A stretch of DNA of 64,000 bases from Flavobacteriaceae bacterium (GTDB lineage: Bacteria > Bacteroidota > Bacteroidia > Flavobacteriales > Weeksellaceae), in contig JAITMJ010000067.1 in assembly GCA_031277475.1 (NCBI GenBank), forward strand, positions 2,107 to 66,106, in the 5' to 3' direction. Of the stretch, positions 2,772-20,699 are shown in pieces. Every line of letters begins with the position of its first letter. Within the stretch, counting starts at the first letter, position 1. The position numbers and the translations under genes are program-made. Under the pieces are notes generated by a model, which was given only the letters and a program-made list of their open reading frames with translations, did no database searches and was not told where the DNA came from.

Positions 2772-5180
2772 ATGATTGAATTTGAAGATATAGATTTTGA
2801 AGATTTGTTGGACAAAAGTTTCAGCATCGTGGCAGAAGAAATTGATTTGACAGAAAAAGAAGAAGATAAAAAAAGAACCGACGGACAAAGCGTTTTCCCG
2901 ATTCTCCCCGTCAGAAATCTGGTGATGTTTCCAAGCGTCGTCATCCCGATAACCGCAGGAAGAGAACAAAGCAAACTGCTGCTGGAAGAAGCCCAGAGAA
3001 ACGGCGAACTCGTGGGAATTTTAAGCCAAAAAAATTCCGAAATAGAAAATCCGAAATATGCGGATTTGAACGAAATCGGAACCATCGTGAAAATCGTGAA
3101 AATCATTAAACTTCCGGACGGAAACGTAACGGCAATCGCACACGGAAGTTCGCGTTTTAAAATTGAAGAATTTGTTTCAAACAAACCTTATTTCAAAGCA
3201 AAAGTTCAAAAACTTGCAGACCTTCCCGCAAAAGACAAGGAAGAATACGAAGCCGTTTTAGACAATATCAAAGATTTGGCGTTGAAAATTATTCAGTTGG
3301 ATCCCACGATTCCGAATGCCGCAAGTTTCGCCATTACAAGTATGAGCAATCGGGACGATTTGTTGAATTTCATCTGTACCAATTCCAATTTTCCCGATGC
3401 CGATAAACAAAAACTTTTGGAGGCAAATAATCTTAAAGACCGTGCCGACAAATGCTATGAATTGATGCTCGACGATTTTCAAAAACTCGAACTCCGAAAT
3501 AAAATTCATCAAAAAACCAGTAAAGAACTCGATAAAAATCAGCGTGAATATTATCTGAATCAGCAGATTAGAAGCATTCAGGAAGAATTGGGAGACGGTC
3601 AGGCTTCCGATGTCGAGGAACTTTTAGCCAAAGCCAAAAATAAAAAATGGAACAAGGAAACCGACGACTATTTCCAAAAAGAAATCAAAAGACTTCAACG
3701 CCAAAATCCCAATTCGCCGGATTATAATGTTCATAGAAATTATTTGGATTTTTTCACGGATTTGCCGTGGCAAAAGTATTCCAAAGATGTTTTTGATATT
3801 GTGAGAGCCGAAAAAATTCTCAATAAAGACCACTTCGGTTTGGAAGATATTAAGAAAAGAATTTTGGAACATTTGGCAGTTTTGAAACTGAAAAAAGATA
3901 TGAAATCCCCGATTCTCCTTTTTGTGGGACCTCCGGGCGTGGGAAAAACTTCTCTCGGAAAATCTGTTGCCAATGCACTCGGCAGAAAATATATGCGTAT
4001 TTCTTTGGGCGGACTTCACGATGAAAGCGAAATCCGCGGACACCGAAAAACCTACATCGGAGCGATGGCAGGAAGAATTTTGCAGAGCATAAAAAAAACG
4101 GGAACTTCCAATCCGGTGATTGTTTTAGACGAAATCGACAAAGTTGGAAATGGTTTTCACGGAGATCCGAGTTCCGCGCTTTTGGAAGTTCTCGACCCGG
4201 AACAAAATTCATCTTTCTACGACAACTATTTGGAAATCGGCTACGATCTTTCCAAAGTGCTGTTCATCGCTACCGCCAATTCGCTTTCCACCATTCAATC
4301 GCCGCTTTTGGACAGAATGGAAATCATACAAATTGCGGGTTATACTTTGGAAGAAAAAATTGAAATCGCCAAGCGGCACCTCATCAAAAAACAACAAAAC
4401 GAAAACGGACAAAATTCCAAATCTTTCAAACTCGGAGATGTCGAATTGAAGCACATCATCGAAGCCCACACTTCGGAAAGCGGCGTGCGAGGTTTGGAAA
4501 AAAACATCGCTTCGATTGCGCGCTGGGCGGCACTTCAAATTGCGACCGGAAAAACGTATGATTCCAAAATTTCCATCGAAAAAATTGATGAAATTCTGGG
4601 TGTTCCGCGACCGAAAAATCTCGCCGAAATCACGTCGGTTCCGGGTGTAGTTACCGGTTTGGCGTGGACGAGCGTGGGCGGCGACATTCTCTTTATCGAA
4701 AGCATCATCAGTAACGGAAAAGGAAATCTCAGCATCACCGGAAATCTCGGAAATGTGATGAAAGAATCTGCAACCATCGCTTTGGAATACATCAAAGCGA
4801 AACATAAAGAACTCGGCATTGATGCTAAAGAATTGGAAAAGAAAAACCTCCACGTTCACGTTCCGGAAGGTGCCACTCCGAAAGACGGTCCGTCTGCCGG
4901 AATTGCGATGCTGACCTCTATGGTTTCGAGCTTCAGGAATAAAAAAATAAAACCTCATTTGGCGATGACGGGCGAAATTACGCTTCGCGGAAAAGTATTG
5001 CCTGTGGGCGGAATTAAAGAAAAATTGCTTGCCGCGAACAGAGCCGGAATCAAAGAAGTAATCCTTTGCGAAGCCAACCGAAAAGATGTGGAAGAAATTA
5101 AAAAAGATTATCTTAAAAACCTGAAAATCAGTTATGTAAGCCGAATGAACGAAGTGATAGATTTGGCGATTGAGAAATAG
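2772..5180 (+). CDS. lon: ATP-dependent Lon protease (endopeptidase La)
   Basis: 802 aa with a Lon N-domain, Walker A GPPGVGKTS, Walker B VIVLDEIDK, catalytic Ser context PKDGPSAGIAM and GGIKEKLLAA downstream. Confidence 0.97.
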   Translation: MIEFEDIDFEDLLDKSFSIVAEEIDLTEKEEDKKRTDGQSVFPILPVRNLVMFPSVVIPITAGREQSKLLLEEAQRNGELVGILSQKNSEIENPKYADLNEIGTIVKIVKIIKLPDGNVTAIAHGSSRFKIEEFVSNKPYFKAKVQKLADLPAKDKEEYEAVLDNIKDLALKIIQLDPTIPNAASFAITSMSNRDDLLNFICTNSNFPDADKQKLLEANNLKDRADKCYELMLDDFQKLELRNKIHQKTSKELDKNQREYYLNQQIRSIQEELGDGQASDVEELLAKAKNKKWNKETDDYFQKEIKRLQRQNPNSPDYNVHRNYLDFFTDLPWQKYSKDVFDIVRAEKILNKDHFGLEDIKKRILEHLAVLKLKKDMKSPILLFVGPPGVGKTSLGKSVANALGRKYMRISLGGLHDESEIRGHRKTYIGAMAGRILQSIKKTGTSNPVIVLDEIDKVGNGFHGDPSSALLEVLDPEQNSSFYDNYLEIGYDLSKVLFIATANSLSTIQSPLLDRMEIIQIAGYTLEEKIEIAKRHLIKKQQNENGQNSKSFKLGDVELKHIIEAHTSESGVRGLEKNIASIARWAALQIATGKTYDSKISIEKIDEILGVPRPKNLAEITSVPGVVTGLAWTSVGGDILFIESIISNGKGNLSITGNLGNVMKESATIALEYIKAKHKELGIDAKELEKKNLHVHVPEGATPKDGPSAGIAMLTSMVSSFRNKKIKPHLAMTGEITLRGKVLPVGGIKEKLLAANRAGIKEVILCEANRKDVEEIKKDYLKNLKISYVSRMNEVIDLAIEK

Positions 5181-16207: not shown

Positions 16208-16239
16208 TTTGTATTCTATGTTTTGGGATTCGGGCATAA
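16208..16239 (+). repeat. 32-bp perfect direct repeat, copy 1 (TTTGTATTCTATGTTTTGGGATTCGGGCATAA)
   Basis: Identical to 16651-16682. Together the two copies frame the gene remnant. Confidence 0.95.
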
Positions 16240-16650: not shown

Positions 16651-16682
16651 TTTGTATTCTATGTTTTGGGATTCGGGCATAA
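16651..16682 (+). repeat. 32-bp perfect direct repeat, copy 2
   Basis: Identical to 16208-16239. It ends one base before the stop codon of the 91-aa gene. Confidence 0.95.
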
Positions 16683-16973: not shown

Positions 16974-19900
16974 TTACTTTTCAATTATTTTAACCTCCTC
17001 CTCCGTCAACCCATACAACGCATAAACCAACCCATCAATCTCCTTATCCGTTGCTGAAATTTCAGCAGAAAGTTTGTTACATTCCGTTTTATATTCGTTA
17101 AAATAATCTTCCCATTCATCTTGTTGTTTAAGTGATAAGGCAAGGGGTTTAAACCCCTTGTTTGGTTTTTTCAATTCGACAAGGAATTGCGCAAAATCCA
17201 ATTTGTCGAAAGTTTCGAGTGCTTTGGTTATGACAGGGGGATTAATCCCCTTGTTAGTAGTGCCTGCAAAATTATCTGCCAATCTTCGCAAAAATTTTTG
17301 GCGTTTGGTTTGTAAACTAACAGACAAGTTTGCCCTATTTTTTGCCAATGGAACAAATTGTTCCTGAATTTCTTTTGGTGCTTTATAAATATATGTGTTT
17401 TGCAAATTTGGTGCAGAATACAATAAATATCCGCCCGACATTCTTAATCCATCAAACAAACATTCAAAAGTATAATTATACAATTTGGAATTTAACCAAC
17501 ACAAAACATATTCAGGCATAAAATCTTTATTGAAAGAGTGTATGCAATTTGTATTGATTGAGGCATATTCGCCAAATTCATCATAAAAAGATTCACAAGT
17601 TAATCCGATTTTAGCGATAATTATTTTTGAAGATGAGTATAATTTATGTCTATTTGAAGAAATTATATTTGAATCTTTTGGCAAAAATGGGTTCAAATAT
17701 TTTTTGCCTTTATCTACTAAATACGAAATTCCCCAATTATTGGAATAATCGTCAATTGTTCCTGTATTTATCAATTTATAACCTTCTATTTCATTGATTA
17801 AAGAAGAATAATCGTCTGCTTCTTTTGCCGTTGAAGTGGCATTTATCAAACCAACCTCTTTTAACGAGCAACTTTTTGCAATGACTTTTTGTGTAATTGG
17901 TAACTTATCGTTCAAAAGAAATCCCCATATAGAATCGTCAATCAAAGAAAGTTTATCTGAATTTGTTTTTTGAACAATCAGTTCTTTTGTTATTTCGTCA
18001 AACTTTCCACATTCAATTTCGTAAGACGAATTATTTTCGTTGTTTTTTAGAAATGTAATTACAGGATATGTTGAGGCATCGGGAAATACTTTTTTGTCTG
18101 AATAATCAATTAGTTGATACAAACAAAAATCAGTTTTTATAAATTCTCTCAATGCTAATCCATAACTCGCAGACAAAAAACGATTTGGAGTAATGTAAGA
18201 TAAACAGCCCGTTTTATTCATTAGCCATAATCCCCTTTCAAAGAAATAGATATATAAATCTACTGTTCCTTTTGCTGTAAAATAGTTATCTTTAAGATAA
18301 TTATATTCTTTTTCCGAATAAGTTTTTTTCAATTCAATTGCATTCACATACGGCGGATTTCCAATCACCACATCAAAGCCGCCTTTATATTCGGGGCGGA
18401 AAGCGTGTTCGATTGTACTGACAAGGGGATGAATCCCCATGTTATAGACGGAGAGATCAAGCGGTGGAAGTTCGTGTTTTATGCGGTTGTTTTCTATATA
18501 TTCTATCGTGTTGTAAAGTTGCTCATTATTCGTAATCTCCTTATAACCAAATTTTTGTGTCCAAAATGGCACACTACGTTCACCCTCTTTTTTGACAAGG
18601 GGATTAATCCCCTTGTTCTGGTTGCAAGCACGAGCCGTTCGACCTTTTATTTTTTTTACAATTTTATCTAATTCCTCTTCTTCACAAACCAAAAGAATAT
18701 GCAAATGGTCCCGACAGATATTATATGCCAACACATTTAAACCATCTTCTTTGACAATTTCGGCAATGGTTTTTGTAATAATAATTTCATCCTCCTCTGT
18801 CATAAATTGTGGGTCTGCATAGGCAAGGGGATTAATCCCCTTGTTATACTTGGCGCGCATCTCTCTCACTTTGTAATCAATCATTCGTTGTGAAGTTCGG
18901 CTATCGTGAATAGCCGTAGTAACGTGAAACGCTTTTTTGTCTTTTTGTTTAAACACTTGCGGAAATTCTTTGTGCCAATCGAAGGCTTTTTCGATTTCTT
19001 CTATTCCCTCTGACAAGGGGTTTAAACCCCTTGTTAAACCTCTTGCCGTTGGTGCAATCAATGAATTTCCACATTTTATATTGTGGCTCAGCGAGTTGAG
19101 TTTTCGGTTCGGTTTTGCAGTTCGCAACCACAACGAAAGTCGGGCAATTTCTACACTTTCGTCGTTTATATCCACGCCGTAAAGGTTGTTTTCCAAAATG
19201 GCGTTTTCGATATTTGGAAAAACAATGCTGCTATCCAACAATTTTGCCGTCATCTCGTCAATCAACTTATGCTCTGTCATCAGGAAGTCAAGCGCGGCGT
19301 TGAGAAAAGCACCACTTCCGCACGCGGGGTCGCAAATAGTAAGCGAGAGTAGCCACGAGCGGTAAGTTTCGAGTTTGTCGTTCAGTTTCTTCTTGGTTTC
19401 TTTTTGTCGTTTTTTATCAGCAAAATATTCCTGTTCGTCAATTTCGAGTTCTGCTTTTTTGTCGGCACAAAGTTTACCGATTGTATTTTCCACAATATAA
19501 GCCGTAATGTAACGCGGAGTGTAGAAAACGCCATCTTTTTTGCGTTTTGAAATTTTCTCTTTCTCTGACAAGGGGTTTAACAAGGGGTTTAAACCCCTTG
19601 TTAATTCCGCAGAAATTTCCTCAATCTCAGTCAGCGAATTTTCAAAAATATGTCCGAGAATATTGACATCTATTTCACTTTTGAAATCGTAATCGGCAAG
19701 TTTTAAAGAATGTTTACGCAAAATTTCGTCGGAAACTACAATATTGTCGAGTATTTCATCGGGCTCAAAAAGTCCGCCGTTGTAGGCAAAAATATCGTGT
19801 TTTTTGCCTTTGTATCCGGTGTTTAAGTAACCAAAATATTTTTTGAAACGCTCGTAAAGTGGAAAATAAGCATCGTTATCTTTAAGCAATTCCCATTGTT

Positions 19901-20699
19901 TTATAATTTCTACAACGGAATTTGGCGGAAGCAAATCGCCGTCTTCGGCAAAGAAAATAAAGAGTAAGCGGTCGAGCAATTTTTGCGTTTTTTTGAATAA
20001 AACAAGGGCATCGACACCAACATCAACAAGGGGATTAATCCCCTTGTTATGCTCTTTCATATCGGCAAACAAATCGCGTTTAAAATTTGAATAATCTTTG
20101 TAAAGTTGGCGAGTAATTTGGTCTTCTTTGCTTACCGATTCGTTTTTCAGTTGTTTTGGCAAATTCGCAGCGATATTTTCGTAAGCCAAGCAAATCCACA
20201 ACAGTGCAAAATCATTTTCCGAGAGTGTAAAAAGATTAAATTCCACAAAATCAATCGTATTCTCAATGTAAAACCGTAATTTCTCAAAATTGGAAATCAC
20301 AACATACGAGGCTTTTCTGTGGTTGTTTTTATAGCCAAAAGCCTGTGTTTCAATGTTTTTTAGGTCGGATGTTTTTGTATCTTTCAGTTCAATCACGCCA
20401 ATCACTTCGCCATTAACCAAAATTGCGCCATCGGCTTTTTTGGAGTTGGTTTCATTTTTTTGTTCGGTAATAAGGTTGAAATTTGGAGTCGGATTGAGTG
20501 TATAACCCAATATTTTTACAAACAATTCACGCAAAAATCCTTCTTGAAATTGTTCTTCTTTTGAATTTCGGATATTTTCTTGAATAGTAACATCTTGAAA
20601 ATAAGCAACATACAATTTATATGCAATAGTGATTTTACCCGCGTTAGCGGCCATTTGCTTTTTTAAAATGGTATGTTGAAAGAGGCTCAAAATAGACAA
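16974..20699 (-). CDS. MmeI/Eco57I-like single-chain Type IIG restriction endonuclease / N6-adenine DNA methyltransferase, carrying an in-frame HUH-transposase insert and eight in-frame palindromic elements
   Basis: Landmarks in order: PD-(D/E)XK nuclease (ADGAILVNGEVIGVIELKDTK), LLFIFFAED, FYTPRYI, motif I ICDPACGSGAFL, CGNSLI, FDWHKEFPQVF, motif IV GGFDVVIGNPPYV, a TaqI_C-like specificity region, and the tail IDGLVYALYGLTEEEVKIIE. The 1241 codons are uninterrupted. Confidence 0.9.
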   Translation of the reverse strand: MSILSLFQHTILKKQMAANAGKITIAYKLYVAYFQDVTIQENIRNSKEEQFQEGFLRELFVKILGYTLNPTPNFNLITEQKNETNSKKADGAILVNGEVIGVIELKDTKTSDLKNIETQAFGYKNNHRKASYVVISNFEKLRFYIENTIDFVEFNLFTLSENDFALLWICLAYENIAANLPKQLKNESVSKEDQITRQLYKDYSNFKRDLFADMKEHNKGINPLVDVGVDALVLFKKTQKLLDRLLFIFFAEDGDLLPPNSVVEIIKQWELLKDNDAYFPLYERFKKYFGYLNTGYKGKKHDIFAYNGGLFEPDEILDNIVVSDEILRKHSLKLADYDFKSEIDVNILGHIFENSLTEIEEISAELTRGLNPLLNPLSEKEKISKRKKDGVFYTPRYITAYIVENTIGKLCADKKAELEIDEQEYFADKKRQKETKKKLNDKLETYRSWLLSLTICDPACGSGAFLNAALDFLMTEHKLIDEMTAKLLDSSIVFPNIENAILENNLYGVDINDESVEIARLSLWLRTAKPNRKLNSLSHNIKCGNSLIAPTARGLTRGLNPLSEGIEEIEKAFDWHKEFPQVFKQKDKKAFHVTTAIHDSRTSQRMIDYKVREMRAKYNKGINPLAYADPQFMTEEDEIIITKTIAEIVKEDGLNVLAYNICRDHLHILLVCEEEELDKIVKKIKGRTARACNQNKGINPLVKKEGERSVPFWTQKFGYKEITNNEQLYNTIEYIENNRIKHELPPLDLSVYNMGIHPLVSTIEHAFRPEYKGGFDVVIGNPPYVNAIELKKTYSEKEYNYLKDNYFTAKGTVDLYIYFFERGLWLMNKTGCLSYITPNRFLSASYGLALREFIKTDFCLYQLIDYSDKKVFPDASTYPVITFLKNNENNSSYEIECGKFDEITKELIVQKTNSDKLSLIDDSIWGFLLNDKLPITQKVIAKSCSLKEVGLINATSTAKEADDYSSLINEIEGYKLINTGTIDDYSNNWGISYLVDKGKKYLNPFLPKDSNIISSNRHKLYSSSKIIIAKIGLTCESFYDEFGEYASINTNCIHSFNKDFMPEYVLCWLNSKLYNYTFECLFDGLRMSGGYLLYSAPNLQNTYIYKAPKEIQEQFVPLAKNRANLSVSLQTKRQKFLRRLADNFAGTTNKGINPPVITKALETFDKLDFAQFLVELKKPNKGFKPLALSLKQQDEWEDYFNEYKTECNKLSAEISATDKEIDGLVYALYGLTEEEVKIIEK
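17141..17160. repeat. REP-like perfect palindrome, TTTAAA type (CAAGGGGTTTAAACCCCTTG)
   Basis: Self-complementary 20-mer, read as NKGFKPLA in the host ORF. Confidence 0.95.
17232..17255. repeat. REP-like palindrome, ATTAAT type, one substitution
   Basis: GACAGGGGGATTAATCCCCTTGTT, read as NKGINPPV. Confidence 0.9.
18420..18443. repeat. REP-like palindrome, degenerate ATTAAT type (two substitutions), at the distal junction of the transposase insert
   Basis: GACAAGGGGATGAATCCCCATGTT, read as NMGIHPLV. Confidence 0.8.
18595..18616. repeat. REP-like perfect palindrome, ATTAAT type (ACAAGGGGATTAATCCCCTTGT), inside the transposase domain
   Basis: Self-complementary 22-mer, read as NKGINPLV between the IKGR and FWTQ motifs. 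Confidence 0.95.
18824..18843. repeat. REP-like perfect palindrome, ATTAAT type (CAAGGGGATTAATCCCCTTG), inside the transposase domain
   Basis: Self-complementary 20-mer, read as NKGINPLA between the first Y1 motif and HUH. Confidence 0.95.
19013..19046. repeat. REP-like perfect palindrome, TTTAAA type (ACAAGGGGTTTAAACCCCTTGT), plus adjacent degenerate half site
   Basis: The full copy is at 19013-19034 and the half-site-like TTAAACCTCTTG at 19035-19046. Together they are read as ARGLTRGLNPLS. Confidence 0.9.
19569..19601. repeat. REP-like perfect palindrome, TTTAAA type, plus duplicated half site
   Basis: The plus strand reads CAAGGGGTTTAA + CAAGGGGTTTAAACCCCTTGT, translated as TRGLNPLLNPL. 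Confidence 0.9.
20025..20048. repeat. REP-like perfect palindrome, ATTAAT type, longest copy (AACAAGGGGATTAATCCCCTTGTT)
   Basis: Self-complementary 24-mer, read as NKGINPLV. Confidence 0.95.

Follow-up and report, generated by a model that had tools for sequence, protein, structure and literature searches.

The 64,000 nucleotides analysed here, called the window (positions 2,107 to 66,106 of contig JAITMJ010000067.1, assembly GCA_031277475.1, Flavobacteriaceae bacterium), carry a type IIG restriction-modification gene whose product contains a nested Y1/HUH domain resembling the REP-associated tyrosine transposases (RAYT), and eight copies of a short palindrome lie in this gene. The copies fall into two classes with different centres, and we show that this dimorphism is one instance of a general rule: at the stem pair next to the loop the two bases must pair, and any base pair will do. 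The conserved unit is the DNA and not the peptide that it encodes, with translation acting as a filter on the copies. We consider it probable that the palindromes are hairpin elements akin to the repetitive extragenic palindromic (REP) sequences and that they belong to the RAYT-like domain nested in the restriction-modification gene.

Pairing of the inner bases in the window and across the gene family

A search of the window with CAAGGGGWTTAAWCCCCTTG, allowing at most 3 mismatches, returned 8 matches in 64 kb against 0 in 100 shuffles, which excludes chance. All eight copies of ACAAGGGG-WTTAAW-CCCCTTGT are in frame within the open reading frame (ORF) 16974-20699 on the minus strand. We write the 20-nt core as CAAGGG-x-y-l1l2l3l4-y'-x'-CCCTTG, in which pair 8, y:y', is made by positions 8 and 13. 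An earlier note on this DNA had sorted the copies into an ATTAAT class (20025, 18824, 18595 and 17232) and a TTTAAA class (19581, 19013 and 17141) that differ only in the central hexamer by a mirror-symmetric double substitution, and this sorting holds. The ATTAAT-class cores start at 20027, 18824, 18596 and, with one outer-stem mismatch, 17234, and those of the TTTAAA class at 19581, 19014 and 17141, all within 1-2 nt of the positions given; the sole difference between the classes is y:y', A:T in the one and T:A in the other. The copy at 18420, which had been taken for a degenerate member of the ATTAAT class, is not just a decayed copy; it is a TTCA-loop variant common to relatives, which have NKGIHPLV at the same site, with one uncompensated stem change added (sense strand CATGGGGATTCATCCCCTTG). 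As single-stranded DNA (ssDNA) the two classes fold, at -8.5 and -8.6 kcal/mol, into a tetraloop hairpin whose stem has 9 bp, and the one-sided intermediates ATTAAA and TTTAAT, at -7.4 and -7.3 kcal/mol, open to a hexaloop. At site 7 (Table 1) the folding energy drops to -5.8 kcal/mol.

A scan of one genome per species yielded 367 loci that encode the nested domain, 80 of which (L001-L080) were analysed; they hold 244 elements, with at least one element in 79 of the 80. As the inner eight bases were left free in the search pattern, the inner-base counts are unbiased. At y:y' we counted G:C 85 times, A:T 73, T:A 48 and C:G 36 times, and a non-Watson-Crick combination twice; x:x' is G:C in 162 elements, A:T in 65 and otherwise in 17. 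The loop ends l1:l4 are T:A in 141 elements, C:G in 93 and other in 10, and they are never purine-first. Further inwards l2:l3 is complementary in 175 and not complementary in 69, and of 236 elements 58 have a central dinucleotide that lacks self-complementarity. At the central two bases self-complementarity is thus not required. Reduced to 99 distinct sequences, y:y' again takes all four forms (GC 41, AU 25, UA 17, CG 14, unpaired 2), with a covariation score of 0.436, which none of 500 shuffles reached; shuffled partners score 0.160 and slid partners at most 0.113. Site 5, which is occupied in 77 of the 80 homologous genes, has a Watson-Crick pair at y:y' in all 70 single-copy loci and needs at least 22 changes of y:y' state together with 19 changes of reading phase, counted on a quick tree of conserved columns only, inserts excluded. 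We conclude that y:y' must pair, that any base pair will do, and that the two classes of the window exemplify this rule. Covariation across a genome-wide set, the check that the earlier note had proposed, gave the same answer, with uncompensated variants at y:y' in 0 of 17 copies of the genome and only the two noted above in the family. The classes are also truly related, for they have the stem and the AA..TC flanks in common and different y:y' states stand side by side within one gene in 20 of 59 multi-copy genes, as in the gene of the window.

We found the elements in two main phases at nearly equal frequency (112 and 108) and in the third phase 10 times, and the two main phases yield different peptides, NKGINPLV and TRGLNPLS. 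The stem bases are nevertheless 97-100% conserved in both, despite their different codon positions. That CAAGGG/CCCTTG is kept in two phases with different peptides places the constraint on the DNA and not on the peptide. In the third phase, which is avoided, a TTAA loop gives a stop codon, and TTAA-lineage copies found there show TAAA, TTTA or TTCA loops instead. The flanks are asymmetric, with AA before and TC after the element on the sense strand, and they are the same in both phases and in both classes; the class-specific flanking preference that the earlier note had proposed to check for was not found. Polarity is likewise conserved, with 146 elements forward and 7 reverse, consistently across at least 8 sites. 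Copies outside genes keep the palindrome, and amino-acid conservation is not above nucleotide conservation, as it should be in a peptide repeat. Thus the view that the DNA hairpin rather than the peptide is conserved was borne out by the two reading phases, by the intergenic copies and by the near absence of mismatches at y:y'. The peptides themselves (KGINPL, RGLNPL, KGIYPL, KGIHPL, RGHAPLS, KGACPL and others) occur in an alignment of homologues only in Y1-bearing proteins, at about 8 recurrent sites and sometimes in tandem.

Table 1. Palindrome sites, host gene and nested domain in the window
Feature	Position	Strand	Description
Site 1	20025-20048	minus	ATTAAT class, pair 8 A:T, perfect stem; read NKGINPLV
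Site 2	19569-19602	minus	Half site CAAGGGGTTTAA (19569-19580), then TTTAAA-class core 19581-19600; read TRGLNPLLNPLS
Site 3	19013-19045	minus	TTTAAA-class core 19014-19033, then half site TTAAACCTCTTG (19034-19045); read ARGLTRGLNPLS
Site 4	18822-18845	minus	ATTAAT class, perfect core; read NKGINPLA; at N-terminal edge of nested domain
Site 5	18594-18617	minus	ATTAAT class, perfect; read NKGINPLV; between HUH and Tyr motifs
Site 6	18420-18443	minus	Pair 8 A:T, sense loop TTCA, one uncompensated outer-stem change; read NMGIHPLV
Site 7	17232-17255	minus	ATTAAT class, one uncompensated outer-stem change (sense CCCCCTG); read NKGINPPV
Site 8	17139-17162	minus	TTTAAA class, perfect core; read NKGFKPLA
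Type IIG (Eco57I/MmeI-like) restriction-modification ORF, 1241 aa	16974-20699	minus	ORF list and Pfam; hosts all eight window palindromes
Nested Y1/HUH (RAYT-like) domain, aa 632-738	18486-18806	minus	Pfam Y1_Tnp, E=4e-12; HUH motif DHLH, Tyr motif YIENNR

The host gene, its nested domain and the spread of copies

The host ORF matches the Pfam families Eco57I, MmeI_Mtase, N6_Mtase, TaqI_C and HSDR_N, which identify its product as a single-chain type IIG restriction-modification enzyme, and in addition Y1_Tnp, an IS200-like domain that splits the methylase region and shows a WTQ motif beside DHLH and YIENNR. A homology search brought up two forms of the protein, one of about 1010 aa without the Y1 domain and one of about 1200-1280 aa with it, and the palindromes go with the second: 17 RAYT-bearing homologues have a mean of 3.7 palindrome peptide motifs and 103 RAYT-less ones have none, and three RAYT-less loci contained 0 elements. 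The link between palindrome and HUH enzyme that the earlier note had put forward is thus upheld as an association. The four stand-alone Y1 genes of the genome carry the YIKNQKEHH motif of RAYT subclass 1.2, a subclass listed without REPs (PMC6006769), which leaves the nested domain as the only candidate partner of the palindromes in the genome. No description of a RAYT nested in a restriction-modification gene turned up in the literature searched, the coverage of which was limited. The family of such genes is found mostly in Bacteroidota, with further members in Chlorobaculum, Ignavibacteria, Marinimicrobia, Cloacimonadota and Melioribacteraceae assemblies, and the outer stem CAAGGG/CCCTTG is identical throughout these taxa. 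No relative of at least 85% nucleotide identity was present in 40 related genomes, and a set of 5.8 billion proteins contained none with more than about 82% identity. Two perfect 32-nt direct repeats of the window (16208-16239 and 16651-16682), 443 nt apart, follow immediately downstream of the restriction gene region.

The 2.99-Mb assembly holds 17 copies of the family, 8 in the host gene and 9 elsewhere; 13 lie inside ORFs of more than 100 aa and the others are intergenic. Four of the 17 have a compensated change in another stem pair (AATGGG...CCCATT), and this pair and y:y' occur in all four combinations (7, 6, 3 and 1 copies), a four-gamete pattern from which it follows that the paired changes either arose repeatedly or were exchanged between copies. 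Across the family, two copies from different sites of one gene agree in the inner 8-mer in 36% of pairs, and two copies from the same site of different genes do so in 9%, which points to copying or homogenisation within genomes; the copies of one gene evolve in concert.

Outside the host gene, the copies within ORFs lie in an MmeI-like methyltransferase fragment, an ORF for an MmeI target recognition domain (TRD) and C-terminus, an hsdS gene and a gene for a DUF6712 protein. Three of these five copies are in restriction-modification genes, namely the methyltransferase fragment (C27:14594, read TRGLNPLLS), the TRD/C-terminal ORF (C30:15815, TRGLNPLFK) and hsdS (C57:46602, DKGFKPLAD), and restriction genes may be preferred sites of the hairpins or may exchange them with one another. 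At C27:12245-17499 an MmeI-like gene is apparently split into several overlapping ORFs with two palindrome-derived peptides (TRGLNPLLS and NSKGASPLV), and it is directly followed by a 173-aa stand-alone Y1 transposase gene with the motif YIKNQREHH. Two intergenic copies stand 33 nt apart in direct order at C5:20158-20212, one with the centre TTTAAA and the other with ATGAAT, both within AATGGG...CCCATT. A different palindrome family, GTAGG-(A/G)GCGCG-ATTAAT-CGCGCC-CCTAC, is present at C87:3802-3823 and 4134-4155; its centre, ATTAAT, also occurs in the family of the window, and its 'double foot' is the canonical GTAG.

Half-site duplications

Two elements of the window carry an extra half site. 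The one at 19569-19580 had been noted before and repeats the 12 nt of left arm and loop in tandem without a difference; the second, placed earlier at 19035-19046, is real and lies one base to the left (19034-19045), matching the right arm and loop at 11 of 12 positions. The site 2 composite can alternatively form a 13-bp stem of -12.3 kcal/mol. Such 12-nt duplications of arm plus loop recur: among 252 elements 7 have one, spread over six sites in 5 of the 81 genes and lying on either side of the element. At the junction TTAA is always directly followed by CAAGGG, three different inner sequences are represented, and one 9-nt duplication was seen besides. One homologue (P0094) has the layout of window site 3, read as TRGLTRDLNPL, at the same site. 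The series can extend further: one locus (L044) has five further tandem 12-nt units encoding (PLVE)n and another (L032) has two. With a unit of 8 + 4 = 12 nt the frame is kept, so that this is also the length that selection lets through. The earlier note had suggested slippage or nested events at hairpins. The recurrence of the duplication and the array of L044 support slippage and give the duplications the behaviour of a nascent minisatellite, and no support was found for nested events. The left-arm and right-arm composites show a 33-nt inverted identity that we considered as a sign of copying and rejected, because two duplications of the same palindrome, one of its left and one of its right arm, are bound to be reverse complements of each other.

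At the site between the HUH and Tyr motifs, both array-bearing loci (L044:4420-4515 and L032:3540-3625) have (AAC/AAT)n poly-Asn tracts, then a hairpin and then the 12-nt half-site arrays, so this spot of the nested domain tolerates long low-complexity expansions. Half-site duplications were seen in 4 of 31 TTTAAA elements, in 3 of the C:G class and in 0 of 45 ATTAAT elements, a difference between TTTAAA and ATTAAT (p=0.025, uncorrected) on which we do not rely; no coding or microhomology reason for such a class bias was found.

Competing explanations and known systems

The explanation that we favour can be set out as follows. The unit would comprise 24 nt of the sense strand, AA-CAAGGG-x-y-NNNN-y'-x'-CCCTTG-TC, and since 24 nt are 8 codons any copy keeps the reading frame. 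As ssDNA it is predicted to fold into a stem of 9-10 bp, with a loop that pairing of its ends, T..A or C..G, could close further. The enzyme probably reads the outer six pairs together with the flanks, all of fixed sequence, and the hairpin would be bound or cut by the nested domain; the inner pairs x:x' and y:y' would need only to pair, and the two 'subfamilies' of the window would be one element with y:y' as A:T or T:A. Copies would spread or homogenise within the genome so that a paired variant propagates as a unit, and one-sided variants would not propagate or would quickly be made symmetric. The peptides ([KR]G..PL) would be by-products, tolerated at linker-like sites and filtered only for an open frame, and the half sites would be 12-nt tandem duplications (arm 8, loop 4) that arise by hairpin-associated slippage and, being in frame, can grow into arrays.

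Several observations weigh against this explanation. The best NCBIfam match of the nested domain, REP_Tyr_transpos, scores 56.9 bits, below the 80-bit cut-off (IS200 scores 33.5 bits), and a sequence search of the PDB gave weak matches only, to the ISDra2/IS608 (IS200/IS605) transposases (E 0.008-0.06), and did not match E. coli TnpA_REP. The flank profiles read AA-CAAGGG...CCCTTG-TC, and the canonical GT[AG]G foot of REP hairpins, as GTAG or GTGG, is absent from them. Four in-ORF copies outside the host gene break the polarity rule relative to the sense strand. Because the sites are orthologous and the genomes related, the raw counts across loci overstate the number of independent events. A one-sided intermediate costs only about 1.2 kcal/mol, so that hairpin stability alone would be a weak selective force. 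At the duplication junctions microhomology amounts to only 1-3 nt, so that slippage is a putative mechanism only; the first duplication step may need the hairpin or the enzyme. Lastly, selection for pairing cannot be separated from a mutation process that itself makes the palindrome symmetric.

Such a process is the alternative that we take most seriously, although we consider it unlikely to be the whole explanation. Quasipalindrome template switching, or repair within the hairpin, would mirror a single change in one step, so that the two classes would be its neutral outcomes. In E. coli, imperfect inverted repeats become perfect by template switching (PMC7202029), and such a process fits the finding that intermediates are almost absent (2 of 244) in spite of their small penalty. 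In the half sites, which have no partner, 5 of 84 nt have changed, and in the stems of the neighbouring elements none of 63 pairs is mismatched, a difference that is not significant (p=0.07) and suggestive only. As a general replication error, however, template switching (PMC7202029) would produce mirrored double changes without defining any element family. It leaves unexplained the fixed outer stem and the asymmetric flanks across phyla, the occurrence with RAYT only and the sharing of variants within genes, and in the window the outer-stem changes at 17234 and 18422 remain uncorrected. It may well act together with the spread of REP-like hairpins that we favour.

We give little credence to a double-stranded site for a dimeric protein, either operator-like or the restriction enzyme's own, with half sites selected separately. 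Mirror symmetry around a free central dinucleotide is typical of dimer-bound sites too, but y:y' takes all four base pairs, which a dimer reading bases would not tolerate, the loop ends put the pyrimidine first, like those of folded DNA tetraloops, the flanks lack symmetry and have a strand polarity, and the elements stand in coding sequence and not in promoters. The outer stem was considered specifically as the recognition site of the restriction enzyme and rejected, as it is constant while the C-terminal halves of the homologues, whose divergence we take as a sign of differing specificity regions, differ strongly. Selection on an RNA hairpin in the mRNA, for stability or for translation pausing between domains, would agree with the polarity relative to the sense strand that is conserved within the gene; this too appears very improbable, for sense mismatches compatible with G:U are not in excess (GT/TG 13 against AC/CA 15), intergenic copies exist, copies in other genes have either orientation and the association is with a HUH domain that acts on DNA. 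Least credible of all is selection on the peptide, on the argument that [KR]G[IL]NPL results from ATTAAT when it is read in the KG phase and equally from TTTAAA when it is read in the RG phase, the class being chosen to fit the frame. In the genome TTTAAA makes up 4 of 4 RG-phase copies against 2 of 9 KG-phase copies (Fisher p=0.02), and the link vanishes across the 80 genes, in which the KG phase has 31 ATTAAT and 21 TTTAAA elements and the RG phase 10 and 7 (p=1.0), so that convergence on this peptide was rejected. A swap of class moreover changes residues non-conservatively (IN to FK, LI to LN), the phase in which site 5 is read, one of two, depends on the lineage, and copies between genes have kept the palindrome.

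A further view, which we regard as improbable, goes beyond REP-like hairpins and sees the hairpins and the nested HUH domain as a built-in system for remodelling restriction genes. The enzyme would then vary in length, always in frame, as hairpins are inserted or replaced and 12-nt arm-plus-loop units multiply at fixed linker sites; other restriction genes of the genome (two MmeI-like genes and an hsdS) would vary in the same way, and the near-universal copy between the HUH and Tyr motifs might be a resident master copy or an autoregulatory site.

The closest known system is RAYT subclass 2.4, in which REPs are in frame inside the transposase gene between the HuH and Tyr motifs; the stems of these REPs have consecutive G:C pairs at their base, and 'double-foot' REPs are reported as well (Quentin 2018, PMC6006769). 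Site 5 is such an in-gene REP position, and the Tyr motif YIENNR resembles YIxNNP of that subclass. On the other hand, the HUH motif is DHLH here and NH[IFV]H there, WTQ stands here and WQ there, and the foot is ACAA/TTGT here and GT[AG]G/C[TC]AC there. Unlike in subclass 2.4, the RAYT here is nested in a type IIG restriction-modification protein, and hairpins are also found in the restriction-modification part of the gene and in other restriction genes. With the REP/REPIN-RAYT systems of Pseudomonas and E. coli the elements have in common that hairpin repeats, short palindromes that fold as ssDNA (17 in the genome, 9-bp stem, about -8.5 kcal/mol), are tied to a single Y1 transposase gene. Those REPs, however, are extragenic, occur in hundreds of copies, have a GTAG foot and often form inverted doublets, whereas the 17 copies found here in 3 Mb are mostly translated, 13 of them being within ORFs, and are single 22-nt palindromes. 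Rickettsia palindromic elements (RPE) are likewise in-frame palindromic repeats in protein-coding genes, tolerated as extra peptide, but they are about 100-150 bp long, and they are not known to be concentrated in one gene or to be accompanied by a Y1 transposase.

REPIN hairpins often show compensatory changes on their two sides (Bertels & Rainey 2011, PMC3116915). RAYT enzymes recognise folded ssDNA, and in a Marinomonas REP the loop ends T12..A15 act as part of the stem (PMC8266576); DNA tetraloops with an L1-L4 closing pair have also been described (PMC9975016), and the pyrimidine-first loop ends found here agree with both. As in-gene REPs and compensatory REP changes have been published, the principle behind our finding is already known, and the gain is one of detail and context and not of a new kind of system. 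The family nonetheless offers a natural dataset on the hairpin substrate of a Y1/HUH domain, with an outer stem and flanks constrained in sequence, inner pairs constrained only to pair and two free central bases, in which translation in two phases separates DNA-level from protein-level constraint without experiment. Arm-plus-loop duplication adds a recurrent route from hairpins to in-frame variation in protein length, and these constraints yield a prediction of the substrate that the RAYT-like domain nested in this family of restriction enzymes recognises.

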